DNA from: Nitrosopumilus sp.
GTDB lineage: Archaea > Thermoproteota > Nitrososphaeria > Nitrososphaerales > Nitrosopumilaceae
Direction of reading: 5' to 3'
NCBI GenBank assembly: GCA_965207445.1
Contig: CBDBLX010000002.1
Location: 2,295,849 to 2,359,848, forward strand
DNA: 64,000 nt
Below are positions 18,001-24,000 of the stretch, piece after piece. The position numbers were made by a program. Position 1 is the first letter of the stretch; every line of letters begins with the position of its first letter.

Positions 18001-21000
18001 ATCTAAACTTGATGATGCAAAGCTGTCCAAGATCAGGGCGCTGATAAAAGAGACAGGGTTCATATCAATCCCATCAGAATCATTTCCAGTGTATGATAAC
18101 GTCACAGAGTACCAAAAATCAAATGTTAAAGTCATGCTCAATGGCAAGGCAAATCAGATACACTGGCCCCAACAAAACGTAACATCAGGATTCATTCCAC
18201 CAATAATTACAATGGTAGAACAAGAATTAGATGCAATTATCGATAAATTGAATACGAGCAAATAGATAAAATACGCATAATATTATAATCATGTATGATA
18301 TCTCTGTCTGGACAACGAGGCGATGCAGCAGGTATAATACGTGATAGAAAACCAGAATATGGTTATCAGACACTGCGCGGCACAAGTAGACTAAAGCGCG
18401 GGTTTGCGCACATGCTCAAAAATGGAGTGGTTATGGATGTGACTACAGTAGAGCAGGCTCAAATAGCAGAAGACGCAGGTGCTGTATCTGTGATGGTTCT
18501 TGATAAACTGCCATCGGATGTACGTAAGGCAGGCGGTGTTGCACGCACGGCAAGTATTAAGATTATCGAGGAGATAATGGATGCTGTCACGATACCTGTA
18601 ATGGCAAAGTGTCGCATAGGCCACGTCTCAGAAGCAGACGTTTTGGCAAAATGTAATGTAGATATGATAGATGAGTCAGAAGTACTGACGCCTGCAGATG
18701 AGAGACACCACATATGGAAGTGGGACTTTACAACACCATTTGTTAATGGTGCACGTTCACTTGCCGAAGCACTCAGGCGTGTTGAAGAGGGAGCCGCCAT
18801 GATACGTACCAAAGGTGAGCCAGGTACTGGAAATGTAGCAGAGGCAATAATACACATAAAAAAACTCAATGATCAGATGCGAATCATCAAAGCAATCAAA
18901 GATTCAGGTGACCAGCAAGAGATGATTAGAATAGCACGTGATTTCAAGGTATCATACGATATACTAGACCAAACTGCCAAACTAGGGCGTCTTCCAGTCG
19001 TTAATTTTGCAGCAGGCGGTATTGCAACACCTGCAGATGCGGCGTACTTGATGTCACTTGGATGTGACGGAATATTTGTCGGATCTGGGATATTCAACTC
19101 TGATGATGCTGCTCAACGTGCAAGTGCAGTCGTACTTGCAACCACACATTGGGATGACTCTACAACTATACGTGATGCTCAAAAGATGATTGATGAGAGA
19201 CAGTCTATGCTTGGACTTGATGTAAACACACTTGATTTAAGAATGCAAGAGAGAGGTGCAACAGCGTAATGAGTGATGATAGTAATCGTAAAGGTATACA
19301 GATAGGAGTCTTGGCAATACAAGGAGATGTAGAGGAGAATGTATCTGCCATATCAAATGCACTGAAGATTCCACGAGGATTCAATGACGATAGTGTGGTG
19401 TATGTAAAGACACCACAAGACGTAATAGGTATTGATGGATTAGTAATACCTGGTGGCGAGAGTACAACTATTGGATTACTCTGCAATGCAAATGACACAC
19501 TTGATGCAGTAAAGTCAAGGATTCAAAACGACGCAATGCCAGTTTTGGGCATTTGTGCAGGATTGATTATGCTTGCTAAATCTGCTAGTGACTCAAGAGT
19601 AAATAAAAAAGAGCAAAATCAACCATTACTAGGTGTACTAGATGTTACAGTGCAACGCAACGCATTTGGACGACAGCGTCAATCCTTTGAGACACAACTT
19701 GACTTGAAGCCACTTGCAATCAATGATTTTAAGGGAGTATTCATACGAGCACCATTAATATCACATGTAGGACCTGATGTCAATATACTATGTGAGATGT
19801 ATGGTGATGGTGATGGTGAACAAGATGTTCATAAAAAGATCATAGCAGTATCACAAGGAAACATTATTGCAACTGCATTTCATCCTGAGTTATCAGGTGA
19901 CCATACAATACATAGACACTTTGTGGATGTTGTAAGACGTAAAAAACGTAATTAAAATATGTGTTATAGTATATTGTGCATTGCACGCAGATCTTTTTCA
20001 AATGGTTTTAGAATATCTGGAATGTCAATATTTATTTGATCTTTTAAAGAGAGATCTTTTGATTTTTTAGTATTCCATACAAAAGAGTTGAACTCAGTTA
20101 TTGCTTTTGTAATGTTTGAATATTTTTTATCACCATCGTTGTATGATTCGGGCTGTCGTTGTGTGTGTATGCTTTTTGTACTTTTATCATGATCATTTGG
20201 TGTTGCATAGAGTTTTTGCCACAAATATTCAGTGATAAATGGTGTAATGGGTGCAAGTAGTTTTAGTATGGTGTATAGTACAAAATGTAGTGTGTGTGTT
20301 GCCGCCTGAGATTCTGCATTTGAGAATTCAATTCCATATGCGCGTCCCTTGACCATTTCAATATAATGTGCAGCAAACACATTCCACGTAAACTCTCTGA
20401 TTGCAATTGCAGGTACGAAAAAGTTGTATACGGCATATCCGCCGCGACACTCTGAGATCAATTCGTCGAGTTCTTCTAATATCCATCTATCAGTGTGCTC
20501 CAAATGTATATTATTATCACGATCATAATCAAAAGGATTGACCAATACGTTTCTATGATCTCTTTCTTTTGGGACCTCAAATGACGAGAGAAATCTTGAG
20601 ACATTCCACAGCTTGCTGAGAAACTTTTTTGCAGACTCGATCTTTTGTTCGTTGCATCGAAAATCATATCCGTGATTTACCTCACTTGCATTCCAAAACC
20701 TAAACGTATCAGCACCAAGACGCCGTATTACAGGTAGTGGATCAATTGCATTACCCTTGCTTTTACTCATCTTCAATCCATGCTCATCAAGTCCATATCC
20801 CATTATCCAAGCTTCGGACCAAGGTGTCATATCAGTAATCTTTGCACATCTCAAAAGGGTATAGTATAACCATGTTCGCACTATGTCTTTTGCCTGTGGT
20901 CTTATCGATGTAGGATACATCTTTTCAAACATATCCATATCTCTGCCATACCCACACACAAACAGAGGCGATATACTAGAGTCCATCCACGTATCAAAGG

Positions 21001-24000
21001 TACGGTCCTCACCAACAAAGTCATTTGCGCCACACTTGTCGCATTTTGTAGCAGGGCATTTTTGGGCCCACGGTCTATAATACGCACCAGGTTCTGGAAC
21101 ATACACATTTTTACATTTACGGCAGTGCCATATTGGAATCTCTGTACTATAATAACGACGTCTAGATATTGGCCAGTCCATATTGATTGACTCTAACCAG
21201 TTGTATAGTACCTGTTTATGCATCGGGGGGTGAAATGTTATGTGTTCTGCCATATTGCGCATATTTTCGGTATAGTCCATCTGTTTCATGTAATATTCCT
21301 CCATCGGAATTATCTCAATTGGATTCTTGCTACGCTCTGCAATCGGTGTGCGGTGTGTGACATCTTCTATTTTAGTGGTCAAATCCATATTCTTCAAGTC
21401 CTCAATAACCTTTGTTCGGGCTTGTTTTGGCCTCAACCCAGAATATGGGCCTGCCTCATCAGTCATACGTCCATCAAGTCCAATAGCAGATACTTCTTTG
21501 AGTTTTAACTCCCTGAATAATGCCACATCATTTTGATCACCATAGCTGCACACCATTACAGCACCAGAACCAAACTCAGACTTTGCAGAAGAGTGTGCGC
21601 GTATTTGCACACTGTGATTTGTGAGTGGAACCGTCACTGTCTTACCCACATATTTTGCGTATCGTTCATCATCAGGGTTGACAATTATCGTTTTACATGC
21701 ACATAATAACTCTGGCCTCGTACTTGCCACGATGATGTAAGGAATAGTATTTGAGTCATTGCTAATAGTAGTGTTAGAATTATCAGGGGTGTTGCTAGTA
21801 TGAGTGTTATTATAATCATCATTGTTGTTGTTGTTGTTGTCGTCATTGCCACCATCATCATTATCACCATCCTCATTGTTGTCATTATTGTTATTATCAT
21901 TGTCGTCATCATTGTTATCACCAATATCAACAGCACCATCATACTCATCGACTAGCTCAAACCGCATATACACCAGTTTAGACGCCACTTCTTCGTATGT
22001 AATCTCAGCATCTGCAATAGTGGTACCTGAAACCCAATCATAGTTATTGGGTCGGTTTGCAAGATAGATCTCCCCATCGTTCCACATCTTGATAAATGTG
22101 GCTTGTGTGAGTGCCCTATACTCAGGCGTATCTGTCCTATATCTTTTGGAGGTATCACCGCTGAGTCCAAGTTCGTTCATGATCTCGACCATCTCAGACT
22201 CTAACTCATCAAGGGATACTTTACACAACTCTAAGAATTTTGTGCGATCAGTATCACGCATTCGGATATTATGTTTTTTTTCTGTGTATATTTCAACGGG
22301 TAAACCATTTCTATCAATTCCAATAGGAAAGTAAACGTTCTTACCTGCCATACGAGCAGTGCGTGCGATCATATCTATTTGCGAGTAATGGGCAGCAGCA
22401 CCGATATGCCAAGGCCTTCCCGAAGGATATGGAGGTGGAGTGTCAATTGTATAGTTTTGACCTTTTTCTTTGAGTACAAACTCATACGTGTTCTCATCTT
22501 GCCATTTTTTTCGGATCTCTGATTCAAGTTCAGGATTCCAAGATTTGGTAGTTATTGTAGGGTTGTTTCTAGTCATTTTTCAATATCTCTAATCTTTGTT
22601 ATTATATGTGCACCTTTGTTGTATCCCTCATATATGTAAACACCAATTGCTTCAATGTTAGATGGCATCTGTTCAGCAAGTAGTTTAATTATCTCAGTTG
22701 CTAAATTCTCAACAGTCGCTTCGCCTTTGAGCAGATATGTGGTATCTTTTGGGACATTTAGGCGAAATGAACCCTTTGGTCCAGTAAACTGCACAGTATA
22801 ATGAAGATCATCTTGATCCGTCATGTACTTTTCATTTATAAAAAATTTATGATCAAATACTGAAATTACTCTTTTAATAATCTCTTTTGCAACACCAAAG
22901 TCCACTAGTAAATTATTTTTCATCTGCCCTACCAATTCAACCATTACAGACGAAGTGTGCCCATGTAGTATAGAGCATTTTTTAACTAACGGAAGTATAT
23001 GTGCATAGTCAAATGAAAACGATGGATCTTCTAAGAATATAGAGCCCGTTTGAGGTGCCTTGTCATAATACACCATATCATGAACCTCACTTATGCGTGC
23101 AACGTGCTTTGGACTTCCAATTGCTACAATACGATCAGACTCAGATGACACAGTAAATTGATTAGAGAGTGATTTAATTTTCTTGTACTTTTCAATGTCA
23201 TCATTAGTATCAATGACCTCAATGAGTCCCTTTTCTGTCTTAAAGTCTACTTGTTCTATATTTCCATCATTCAATTGTATAATATGTCCATATTCATACT
23301 TTATATCTAAAAAGTCAAGCATTTGAGCTATTGTTAGTTCAGTTCTACTCTTCATAATGTTTCCATATTTATCAACATATTTGAAATCTGAATCAGTTAT
23401 GTGTGAATGATCCAAAGGTGGTTTCAAGGACTCCATAATGATCTGTGCCTCTCGTATCATTATAAATTCTACATAAATACAGAAAAGTGCAAATGTCTGC
23501 AAGTGGTCTCCTGCCATCTATGATTTGCCCCACATGATATATCTCAAACTTCATTAGACAATAGATCTCTAACATTACACAAAGTCTGTCGAATTACACA
23601 TCAACCACACCAACACCATATCAGATCTAAAACATTTGCAAGTCAAACCGCACACACCTTGCAACGACAATGACGCACACATACACACGACCCCACATCA
23701 GCCCGCCGCAGCGACTACCCGTTCCCAGCTAGAGGGAGTGGGGGGAGAACGCTTGCCAAATCAACATATAGAGACTTTTTATATCAATAGTTAAAATCAC
23801 CAAATATAGTCACATTATTTAATTAGTAAAAAACAACAATGGGTATTTTGATTATTGTTAGCCAAGTTGCATCTATGAACATACAAGCGTATCGAGAGTC
23901 TTTGCCAAATCAAGATCATTTTTTGTGATACCACCAGCATCATGAGTCACCAGGTCTATTACTAACTTGTTGTAAACATTGAACCATTCTGGATGATGGT

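Follow-up and report, generated by a model that had tools for sequence, protein, structure and literature searches.

A repeat-built, Asn/Asp-rich insert in the valyl-tRNA synthetase of a Nitrosopumilus and the probable slippage-driven accretion of low-complexity loops in core proteins

The oddity of low-complexity inserts in housekeeping proteins has long been debated for Plasmodium and Dictyostelium. Prokaryotes, to our knowledge, are generally assumed to eliminate sequence of this type, and simple-sequence repeats in host-adapted bacteria were reportedly treated by Mrazek et al. in 2007. According to the available parts of the sources, poly-Asn occurs in a quarter of the proteins of P. falciparum (PMC13438671), and host-adapted bacteria show an enrichment of simple-sequence repeats together with contingency loci (Lin & Kussell 2012, PMC3315296). 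For archaea, the accessible portion of a prokaryotic survey places low-complexity regions (LCRs) in FtsY, DnaK and ribosomal proteins, with an average of 0.07% of residues in LCRs and a heavy under-representation of Asn (Ntountoumi et al. 2019, PMC6821194). As far as their accessible text goes, this survey and a study of compositional order (Persi & Horn 2013, PMC3836704) treat conserved, presumably functional LCRs and do not describe core enzymes that gain inserts in particular lineages. Sponge-associated Thaumarchaeota are reported to have undergone genome expansion with raised GC content, in a paper whose available text mentions neither low-complexity nor disordered regions (PMC9289680). 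We found no description of a proteome-wide low-complexity expansion in archaea in the literature, so far in agreement with the genome-wide survey's note on the Nitrosopumilus genome studied here. Its claim of novelty is qualified by the compositional-order ranking, which in the part available already puts Cenarchaeum symbiosum (1665) and N. maritimus (883) at the top of the archaea (PMC3836704).

The inserts described below share with the Asn-rich inserts of P. falciparum and the triplet-repeat homopolymers of Dictyostelium discoideum, as the available excerpts present them, that they are hydrophilic, repeat-coded, in-frame segments amid conserved blocks of core enzymes, that base composition drives their make-up and that slippage varies their length (PMC13438671, PMC7534687, PMC3460934). 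They differ in that their present host is an archaeon with a GC content of 40% rather than 19%, and in that a 60%-GC sister genome fills the same sites with Gly/Ala. The scale is also far smaller than the Plasmodium-like one that had been suggested: among 2044 ORFs, 13.5% contain a low-complexity window, well short of eukaryotic prevalence, such windows cover 1.39% of residues, and there are 55 Asn runs of at least five residues. As in host-adapted bacteria, to the extent that the source is available, several microsatellite periods are raised genome-wide and frame-shifting periods are counter-selected in genes; unlike bacterial contingency loci, the tracts considered here are in-frame 3n tracts in core enzymes instead of 5′-end on/off switches of surface or restriction genes, and they decay to permanent protein inserts (PMC3315296).

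The locus lies in a window of 64,000 nucleotides, whose relevant features are collected in Table 1. The 870-aa ORF encodes valyl-tRNA synthetase (ValRS). Pfam places the class I catalytic domain (tRNA-synt_1) at aa 21–630 (E = 7.9e-68) and the anticodon-binding domain (Anticodon_1) at aa 696–849, and the closest solved structure is ValRS of T. thermophilus (1GAX, E = 1e-76), with IleRS behind at 3e-51. The KMSKS motif at aa 603–607, the family signature, is intact, M603, S604, K605, S606 and K607 being invariant in a 17-row orthologue alignment (A1).

Table 1. Positions of the ValRS gene, its inserts and other features within the window
Feature	Position	Strand	Remarks
PheRS beta subunit	9112..11064	+	net +103 aa vs the genus genome G012
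Three PheRS beta inserts	9373-9429, 10564-10674, 10876-10953	+	Asn/Asp/Lys-rich and Ser-rich
10-aa insert YGDGDGEQDV in PdxT (SNO glutamine amidotransferase)	19800..19829	+	gene adjoins ValRS
Valyl-tRNA synthetase gene	19964..22576	-	single 870-aa ORF; typical genus orthologues ~772 aa
Third ValRS insert, 8 aa (ATPNDHDK)	20183..20206	-	near C-terminal region
Second ValRS insert, 18 aa (HRNVLVNPFDYDRDNNIH)	20504..20557	-	between catalytic and anticodon-binding domains
66-aa Asn/Asp-rich ValRS insert, aa 211-276	21749..21946	-	no counterpart in any aligned orthologue
Nested tandem-repeat core of the 66-aa insert	21815..21923	-	TRF: 54 nt x 2.0 (78% match), 12 nt x 4.3
Pure (AAC)6 tract inside the 66-aa insert	21822-21840	-	TRF
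IS copy, DDE_Tnp_1 transposase, 398 aa	24312..25716	-	as many as 22 more on contig C2; context for the IS load

The largest insert stands in place of a 4-residue turn that links two beta strands at the entry of the CP1/editing domain; in the alignment with 1GAX, residue 208 of the query corresponds to residue 204 and residue 280 to residue 209. That this segment is unmatched in relatives had been claimed before and is confirmed by our searches. Among 40 relatives, 38 gave a ValRS match (23 of the genus, 15 of other genera; G022 and G026 gave paralogue-level matches only and are outside this count), and all 38 lack the insert: the matches break at about aa 207–225 and restart at about aa 265–282, with both pieces contiguous in the target DNA. 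Another 9–10 genus genomes likewise lack it, the ValRS fragment of G081 beginning downstream of the site, and in a 25-row alignment the 66 columns are occupied in the present genome alone. ValRS thus carries an in-frame segment within a conserved protein that has no counterpart in its orthologues, and the underlying DNA consists of tandem repeats and few codon types. AAY/GAY codons make up 63% of the insert, 96% of its codons are at most one substitution away from AAY/GAY vs 49% in the remaining gene, and the third codon position is C/T in 95%. In a predicted structure, strands at aa 192–208 and 280–285 flank the insert, which has a pLDDT below 50 in a model that is poor as a whole (mean 56.6); on this model the insert would be a disordered surface loop. 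At the junction of the catalytic and anticodon-binding domains, the site of the second insert, ValRS of the sister genome G066 has a Gly/Asn-rich insert of about 60 aa.

To extend the analysis to the whole proteome, we compared it, independently of the earlier note, with the entire 1.56-Mb genome of G012, a complete, free-living-type member of the genus. With crude gene calls (longest-ORF greedy), 1286 best-hit pairs were obtained, or 1113 after ORFs nested in longer paired ORFs had been dropped. In 166 of the 1113 pairs the protein of the present genome exceeds its partner by 20 aa or more, and in none does it fall short by as much (sign test p = 2e-50); at a threshold of 40 aa the counts are 69 and zero. 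In net terms, +11,012 aa stand against −239 aa, equal to 3.4% of the residues aligned, and the reported excess of gains over losses holds for a whole genome. A Pfam search of 20 insert-bearing ORFs identified LeuRS, IleRS, STT3, archease, D-aminoacyl-tRNA deacylase, argininosuccinate lyase, uL15, GatD, enolase, 2-oxoacid:ferredoxin oxidoreductase, a NuoN-like subunit and Lhr, among others, as hosts. Within 85 inserts found against G012, 21% of residues are hydrophobic, compared with 37% in the same proteins overall; 59 of the 85 consist to at least 60% of N/D/S/T/G/H/Q/K, and 21 still overlap a TRF locus. The description of the inserts as in-frame, hydrophobic-poor and repeat-built segments of core proteins is therefore accurate. 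With rising conservation the insert load drops, from 72.9 aa per 1000 aligned in proteins of 35–50% identity to 1.2 per 1000 at 80% identity or more (rho = −0.47), a gradient that is partly circular because the identity measure counts gap columns.

A slippage origin of the inserts, as proposed earlier, fits every test and is well supported. The genome contains 168 pure trinucleotide tracts of at least five units (64/Mb), whereas 400-kb samples of G012 and of the sister genome G135 yielded none and 26, respectively, and microsatellites of every period are elevated in the present genome and G135, not in G012. Tracts of 3n type are as dense inside as outside ORFs (64.5 vs 64.1 per Mb), and tracts of period 2, 4, 5 and 11 are depleted inside by a factor of about 10 or more. 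Those within genes are nearly always translated in hydrophilic frames: AAT-class tracts read as Asn in 26 cases, Ile in 4, Leu in 2 and never as Tyr; ATC-class tracts as Asp in 27, Ser in 5, His in 1 and never as Ile or Met; and AAC-class tracts as Gln in 12, Asn in 11, Thr in 9, Val and Cys in one each and never as Leu. The process is ongoing, as seen in contig C1, a ∼98.7%-identical copy of the ends of contig C2. Over 67.8 kb of alignment, the two differ by 22 indels of at least 3 nt, most of which add or remove repeat units (ATT, TTG, AAC, 12-mers).

The earlier statement that genus orthologues lack the inserts applies to the 66-aa ValRS insert and fails for the trait, which is present in the sister genomes G147, G135 and G066. 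Both G135 and G147 have as many inserts of their own as the present genome, scattered genus genomes hold (RAY)8 runs, and in a quick tree built from ValRS as a single gene the trait appears in several separate branches beside relatives without it. The genomes of this clade measure 2.2–2.6 Mb, with GC contents of 39.6, 46.7 and 59.6%, and bear a heavy IS load, which for the present genome had been noted before and is evident from the 15.7% of contig C2 taken up by dispersed repeats. Large size, raised and variable GC and a heavy IS load recall the sponge-associated Thaumarchaeota as portrayed in the available part of PMC9289680. In a three-way comparison, G147 has an insert at the same site for 39 of 57 scored inserts of the present genome, and G135 for 13 of 52. 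Between the present genome and G147, 39 sites are shared, 9 are specific to the former, 13 to the latter and 9 are partial. Sequence identity is 25.4% within the shared inserts vs 72.6% outside. Lengths at the 39 shared sites correlate strongly (Spearman 0.91), in part by construction since a site counted as shared only if both genomes filled at least half of its columns. At these sites G147 (GC 59.6%) has G24 A13 (percent of residues) and the present genome S13 N13 D13; make-up thus tracks genome GC, and the Asn/Asp richness taken to characterize the inserts does not hold as a property of theirs. Inserts found only in the present genome (N26 D14) are visibly repetitive, and those found only in G147 (G27 A15) include one run of 22 Gly.

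These observations are probably best explained by repeat slippage that is filtered by reading frame and accumulates as loops along the lineage. Short tandem repeats of all periods would arise everywhere in the genome through a general mutational process. Frame-shifting periods would be purged from genes, repeats reading as hydrophobic residues or stops rejected, and hydrophilic in-frame tracts would survive, mostly in loops of less constrained proteins. Once substitutions interrupt a tract, slipping would end and the tract persist, and inserts thereby build up. The ValRS insert would be an ordinary disordered surface loop, presumably translated and retained in the protein. The conserved proteins of this genome carry no fewer than 166 inserts of 20 aa or more, of which it is one. 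It probably grew as A-rich codon repeats (AAY/GAY) were multiplied through replication slippage or unequal exchange, and was later blurred by point mutation. Most inserts recur in the sister genome at identical positions and with similar lengths, their composition rewritten by the GC content of each genome. They may be neutral or slightly deleterious, and weak selection due to small population size, possibly with host association, may permit their fixation.

It is highly improbable that the asymmetry instead arose because streamlined, free-living genomes like G012 lost sequence by deletion, a reading that is largely refuted. G012 is indeed small and dense, and 7 of 38 gaps polarised in 160 proteins with the outgroup G032 are ambiguous, with residues in both the present genome and G032; but 28 of the 38 are insertions on the line of the present genome, on which no deletion of at least 10 aa was recorded in this set. 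ValRS of T. thermophilus has the short turn, all 15 matches from other genera lack the insert, and ancestral sequence that had been deleted elsewhere would not have the repeat-built, low-complexity character of the extra segments. Hardly credible at all are assembly errors, inteins or scars of off-target CRISPR spacer integration, even though the assembly holds C1 as a second, variant contig. Four separately assembled public runs (one sample of one study, probably the source sample of the genome) each gave a contig identical to the window in every base and of equal length across the ValRS insert, which is therefore not an assembly artefact; insert length does not vary among the contigs compared, all from this one sample, and the reading frame is intact. 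Inteins have a Hint domain with splice-junction residues and at least ∼130 aa; the ValRS insert has no Hint family in Pfam and only 66 aa, mostly from Asn/Asp codons (63%). None of the 85 inserts, ValRS included, has the repeat-spacer-repeat geometry of a spacer-sized insert flanked by a direct duplication of ∼36 nt. Direct repeats of at least 20 nt in three of them, at spacings of 30, 45 and 54 nt, are tandem repeats. These readings are refuted for ValRS and for the 85 inserts sampled; a few non-repetitive inserts elsewhere could be spacer scars. A phase-variable contingency locus, in which a change in unit number alters the frame or the promoter spacing, was likewise rejected, as the units of the ValRS insert are all multiples of 3 and non-3n tracts are depleted in ORFs.

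That the inserts are kept for a function seems improbable. They might, for instance, be hydrophilic "entropic bristle" or solubility loops that make up for a loss of protein stability, serve as spacers, or bind condensates or metals (Asp-rich regions) to the benefit of the organism in its niche. The strong preference for hydrophilic frames would fit such a role, but removal of harmful readings accounts for it equally well. The many sites shared with G147 at similar lengths, despite 27% divergence of the flanks, could mean that length was selected over the deep split between the two genomes, but the shared inserts have diverged in sequence and flip in composition with GC, and tracts are equally dense outside genes. 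Unit numbers vary between the near-identical copies C1 and C2, load peaks in the least conserved proteins and is almost nil in the most conserved, and separate lineages fill different loops of one enzyme, as the ValRS alignment shows. Purifying selection is clearly active in the genome, with a pN/pS of 0.17 between the 98.7%-identical copies (48 genes); this value also fits poorly with strongly relaxed selection, a part of the earlier interpretation that was not borne out. It is somewhat unlikely that replication or repair changed in this lineage, through a slippage-prone replisome or the loss of an anti-slippage factor, and so raised the microsatellite mutation rate with no need for weak selection. 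Such a change would agree with a pN/pS that is not high, the rise in all periods in the present genome and G135 but not G012, and the scatter of the trait over the ValRS tree, but our searches yielded no candidate loss. Of 18 genus genomes searched, 14 gave no NucS, ordinary ones among them; MutS was not found in the present genome, and ordinary relatives also lack both. The 211 G012 genes without a match here include no mismatch-repair gene, and the methyladenine glycosylase and NurA hits are unsuited, NurA being present, though very divergent. Moreover, the trait goes with IS load, long branches and low coding density (0.77, compared with 0.92 in 400 kb and 0.87 in the whole genome of G012 at a 100-aa ORF cut-off), the classic signature of weak selection.

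In its boldest form, frame-filtered slippage would mean that this whole clade of ammonia-oxidising archaea has long been accreting disordered loops in core enzymes, at orthologous sites and of similar length, shifting from Asn/Asp/Ser to Gly/Ala/Arg as GC rises from 40% to 60%, with either length but not sequence under selection (functional spacers or solubility "bristles" that buffer drift-destabilised proteins) or a heritably slippage-prone replisome. We consider this rather unlikely; if true, the Plasmodium puzzle would have its counterpart among prokaryotes, with a natural experiment built in. A compact archaeal clade displays all stages of the process, from birth (pure tracts differing between near-identical copies) through frame filtering and decay to long retention. 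Because insert sites are common to 40%- and 60%-GC sisters, mutation bias and selection on LCR composition become directly separable. In practice, orthologue lengths, domain boundaries and alignments are distorted for these genomes, and automated annotation may miscall insert-bearing genes. Within the window, ValRS is not the only such gene (Table 1), and the site of the middle PheRS beta insert is partly common to G135.

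The valyl-tRNA synthetase (ValRS) gene of the window is a single ORF of 870 aa, compared with ~772 aa in typical ValRS orthologues of the genus. Pfam places the class I tRNA-synthetase catalytic domain at aa 21-630 and the anticodon-binding domain at aa 696-849, and the closest solved structure is the Thermus thermophilus ValRS 1GAX (E 1e-76). One main insert and two smaller blocks were located in this gene.

Position of the ValRS gene and its inserted blocks in the window
Feature	Window position	Strand	Basis or extent
ValRS ORF	19964-22576	-	
Main insert, bulk of the extra length	21749-21946	-	aa 211-276
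Smaller block	20504-20557	-	18 aa
Smaller block	20183-20206	-	8 aa

The genome-wide survey's note had described the main insert as unmatched in relatives, and our searches agree. We obtained ValRS matches in 38 of 40 relatives (23/24 from the genus, 15/16 from other genera), while G022 and G026 gave paralogue-level matches only. All 38 matches break at about aa 207-225 and resume at about aa 265-282, and on the target the two pieces are separated by only a few codons. Ten extra genomes of the genus were picked because they carry the repeat trait, that is, in-frame, repeat-built low-complexity inserts in core proteins; nine of them lack the ValRS insert, and the fragment from the remaining one (G081) begins past the site. 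The genome under study (G000) is the only one to fill the 66 insert columns, both in a 25-row and in a 36-row alignment. Each of four public runs, all from a single sample of a single study and probably the source sample, contains one contig identical to the window and of equal length across the ValRS array. A long-read assembly artefact is therefore an unlikely source of the insert, although rare length variants would be invisible here because the comparison is one of contigs from one sample. At the level of sequence, the insert in ValRS is genuine and specific to G000. In another genome, we came across a second, broken ValRS copy with internal stops (G007:C1:1883926-1884959, pieces of 201 and 151 aa); its intact copy lies elsewhere.

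TRF resolves the insert into two copies of a 54-nt unit (78% match), 4.3 copies of a 12-nt unit, and a pure (AAC)6 tract. AAY or GAY accounts for 63% of its 67 codons, 96% are within one substitution of AAY/GAY as compared with 49% in the remaining gene, and 95% carry C or T at the third position. Query residue 208 pairs with residue 204 of the 1GAX chain and query residue 280 with chain residue 209, so that the insert takes the place of a four-residue turn between two strands at the entry to the CP1/editing domain. An AlphaFold2 model built from 17 sequences is of low quality overall (mean pLDDT 56.6); it predicts strands at aa 192-208 and 280-285 and leaves aa 211-276 unstructured (pLDDT <50). 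The outgroup G032, a genome of another genus with 15 inserts of its own in a 400-kb sample, carries a small, independent Ser/Asn repeat (GSSNSNSNSNKDG, locus L072) in the identical hairpin, a loop that is a hotspot of repeated insertion. Inserts in different ValRS loops are found in the genus genomes G066, G147, and G135.

The survey had also claimed an excess of insertions across the proteome, which is borne out by a comparison with the entire genome of G012, a 1.56-Mb single-contig member of the genus with 33% GC. We compared stop-to-stop ORFs over their aligned spans only and obtained 1286 best-hit pairs, 1113 of which remained once ORFs nested in longer paired ORFs (antisense shadows) were dropped. 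In 166 pairs the G000 member exceeds its counterpart by 20 aa or more, and in none does it fall short by as much (69 vs 0 at ≥40 aa), with a net change of +11,012 vs -239 aa, or 3.4% of aligned residues (sign test, p = 2e-50). Polarising the gaps with the outgroup G032 in 160 proteins assigned 28 insertions to the G000 line; 7 further gaps are filled in G000 as well as in G032, another 3 are partial, and the comparison recorded no G000-line deletion of 10 aa or more. In the first 400-kb sample, G000 has 85 inserts measuring 10 aa or more (1858 aa) and G012 has one. The composition of the 85 is N14 S12 D12 T8, with 21% hydrophobic residues vs 37% for the proteins that carry them; 59 of the 85 consist to at least 60% of N/D/S/T/G/H/Q/K, and a TRF locus still overlaps 21. 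Pfam named 19 of 20 insert-bearing ORFs, among them LeuRS, IleRS, STT3, archease, D-aminoacyl-tRNA deacylase, argininosuccinate lyase, uL15, GatD, enolase, 2-oxoacid:ferredoxin oxidoreductase, a NuoN-like subunit, and the Lhr helicase. Within the window, PheRS-beta has three inserts (+103 aa vs G012). A MoxR-like AAA ATPase (42514-43440, +) starts with a Ser/Pro-rich tail (MDSNASSPSSPSSSPSSPSSSRTTKY), which could be a start-codon miscall and not a true extension because it is N-terminal.

The trait had been presented as unique to G000, a view that does not hold: G147, G066, G135, and others carry such repeats or inserts. A (RAY)8 scan gave 249 overlapping matches at 56 loci in G000 and zero in 98 of 150 other genus genomes; counts are also high in G135 (364), G133 (165), G117 (112), G066 (100), and about ten more. 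In a 201-genome sample of the family, 165 genomes have no match, G000 ranks top, and G178, from another genus, stands out (81 pattern and 541 control matches) and may have acquired the trait independently. At 4.3 Mb, G178 is unusually large for the family, and it contains many separate poly-AAC/poly-AAT loci (e.g., G178:C2:331945-331983). A ValRS tree, obtained by a quick ML search on this single gene, groups G000 with G147 (SH-aLRT 99), then G066 (100), then G135 (91). These four have long branches, and other trait-bearing genomes adjoin relatives without matches. The length asymmetry vanishes against G135 (GC 46.7%), with 18 vs 14 pairs at ≥20 aa and 40 vs 40 inserts at ≥10 aa; against G147 (GC 59.6%) the pairs at ≥20 aa number 19 vs 11, or 19 vs 10 without shadows.

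We compared insert sites in three-way alignments with G012 as reference. Across 213 proteins, G000 and G147 share 39 sites, with 9 found only in G000, 13 only in G147, and 9 partial; across 233 proteins, the corresponding numbers for G000 and G135 are 13, 35, 34, and 4. These counts indicate that the lineage gathers inserts over time. Where G000 and G147 have a site in common (39 sites), the composition is S13 N13 D13 T9 in G000 vs G24 A13 D9 S9 R9 in G147, and identity between the two is 25.4% (230/906) inside the inserts vs 72.6% outside; their lengths correlate (Spearman 0.91), in part because of the way the shared class was defined. Inserts restricted to G000 have a purer composition (N26 D14) and are visibly repetitive, and those restricted to G147 (G27 A15) include a run of 22 Gly. 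Per Mb, G147 has 62.5 (GSN)8 loci, G000 has 6.1, and G012 has 0. Asn/Asp richness, put forward by the survey as a property of the inserts, is thus a by-product of base composition, since the shared sites are Gly/Ala-rich in G147. The process is a clade-wide, long-running accretion of inserts whose composition follows GC. The two sisters differ by 20 GC points within one genus (59.6% in G147, from loci L139-L158, G147:C2:470001-870000, and 39.6% in G000; typical for the genus is 33%).

How the inserts arise can be addressed from the repeat tracts themselves. G000 contains 168 pure trinucleotide tracts of at least five units (64/Mb), compared with 0 in a 400-kb sample of G012 and 26 in one of G135, and its microsatellites of all periods are raised. 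Tracts with a period of 3n are equally dense in ORFs and outside (64.5 vs 64.1 per Mb), and those with periods 2, 4, 5, and 11 are depleted about ten-fold or more in ORFs. The reading frame of the tracts is strongly biased: within ORFs, the AAT class encodes Asn 26, Ile 4, Leu 2, and Tyr 0 times, the ATC class Asp 27, Ser 5, His 1, Ile 0, and Met 0 times, and the AAC class Gln 12, Asn 11, Thr 9, Val 1, Cys 1, and Leu 0 times. Between the two contigs C1 and C2 of G000, 67.8 aligned kb contain 71 indels, 22 of them at least 3 nt long and mostly gains or losses of repeat units. These observations support the origin by slippage that the survey had suggested; inserts would arise by this mutational route and then be filtered by selection. 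The insert load per 1000 aligned aa falls from 72.9 at 35-50% identity to 1.2 at ≥80%, a trend that is partly circular because gap columns count in BLAST identity.

Among other sources, CRISPR spacer scars can be set aside for the 85 inserts sampled, none of which has that geometry. Loss of a repair gene was considered as the cause of the trait. Of 18 genus genomes searched, 14 yielded no NucS_C; in G000 this domain gave no more than a sub-threshold match, and MutS_V was not found there. Of 1525 G012 ORFs (loci L027-L177), 306 have no tblastn match in G000, and a Pfam scan of 211 of the 222 unmatched ORFs of at least 150 aa (11 crossing locus borders were omitted) yielded largely transporters (PHO4, SbtA, SDF, Na/H) and two-component proteins (response regulators, histidine kinases), besides TackOD1 signalling, KaiC, T2SSF pilus or archaellum-like, Usp, and PAC2 families. 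This set looks like sensing and uptake functions lost in G000. Sir2, RtcA, methyladenine glycosylase, and NurA were also among the unmatched genes; on closer search, a very divergent NurA is present in G000, G147, and G135. None of these absences amounts to an explanatory repair-gene loss. The survey had further invoked relaxed selection in a host-associated lineage; across 48 genes compared between C1 and C2, pN/pS is 0.17, a value that does not establish strongly relaxed selection. Candidate causes are drift or a slippage-prone replisome.

Slippage-born low-complexity inserts are described for Plasmodium and Dictyostelium in the available portions of three papers (PMC13438671, PMC7534687, PMC3460934), with a mechanism matching that in G000, although the inserts of G000 are on a much smaller scale and in an archaeal host. 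According to the accessible part of a report on prokaryote surveys (PMC6821194), low-complexity regions make up ~0.07% of archaeal residues and Asn is under-represented. Persi and Horn (2013; PMC3836704) found the most compositional order among archaea in Cenarchaeum symbiosum and N. maritimus; unlike the situation in G000, the available part of their account does not include inserts in core enzymes. No description of the trait in archaea was found in the literature searched, from which most subscription journals were out of reach. Sponge-associated Thaumarchaeota have expanded genomes and raised GC, as far as the accessible text of PMC9289680 goes, and by this comparison the genomic features of G000 resemble theirs.

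Dispersed repeats (≥400 bp, ≥85% identity) cover 15.7% of C2, with 132 segments in six or more copies, compared with 14.5% in a 400-kb sample of G135 and 0.9% in G012. By a crude estimate, coding density is 0.77 for G000 and 0.92 (sample) or 0.87 (whole genome, 100-aa cut-off) for G012. Homopolymer runs of at least five residues per 100,000 aa number 33.8 in G000, 2.5 in G012, and 30.5 in G135, and low-complexity residues amount to 1.39%, 0.55%, and 0.86%, respectively. Contig C1 (121,040 bases) is ~98.7% identical to C2:2486277-end plus C2:1-119513, including 9,024 bases at 100%. This contig represents either a large duplication or a second strain or haplotype that the assembler retained, and it is the probable reason for the 5.5% "contamination" figure; that it spans both ends of C2 suggests that C2 is circular. 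Finally, a block at window 48001-52000 has a GC content of 48-55% against a background of 37-40%. An rRNA operon does not account for it, because the only Rfam matches in the window are two tRNAs. The block, which may be a foreign or mobile element, contains a 953-aa ORF (49073-51934, -) with Pro-rich low-complexity stretches, and its part 48668-50106 has up to 8 more copies on C2.
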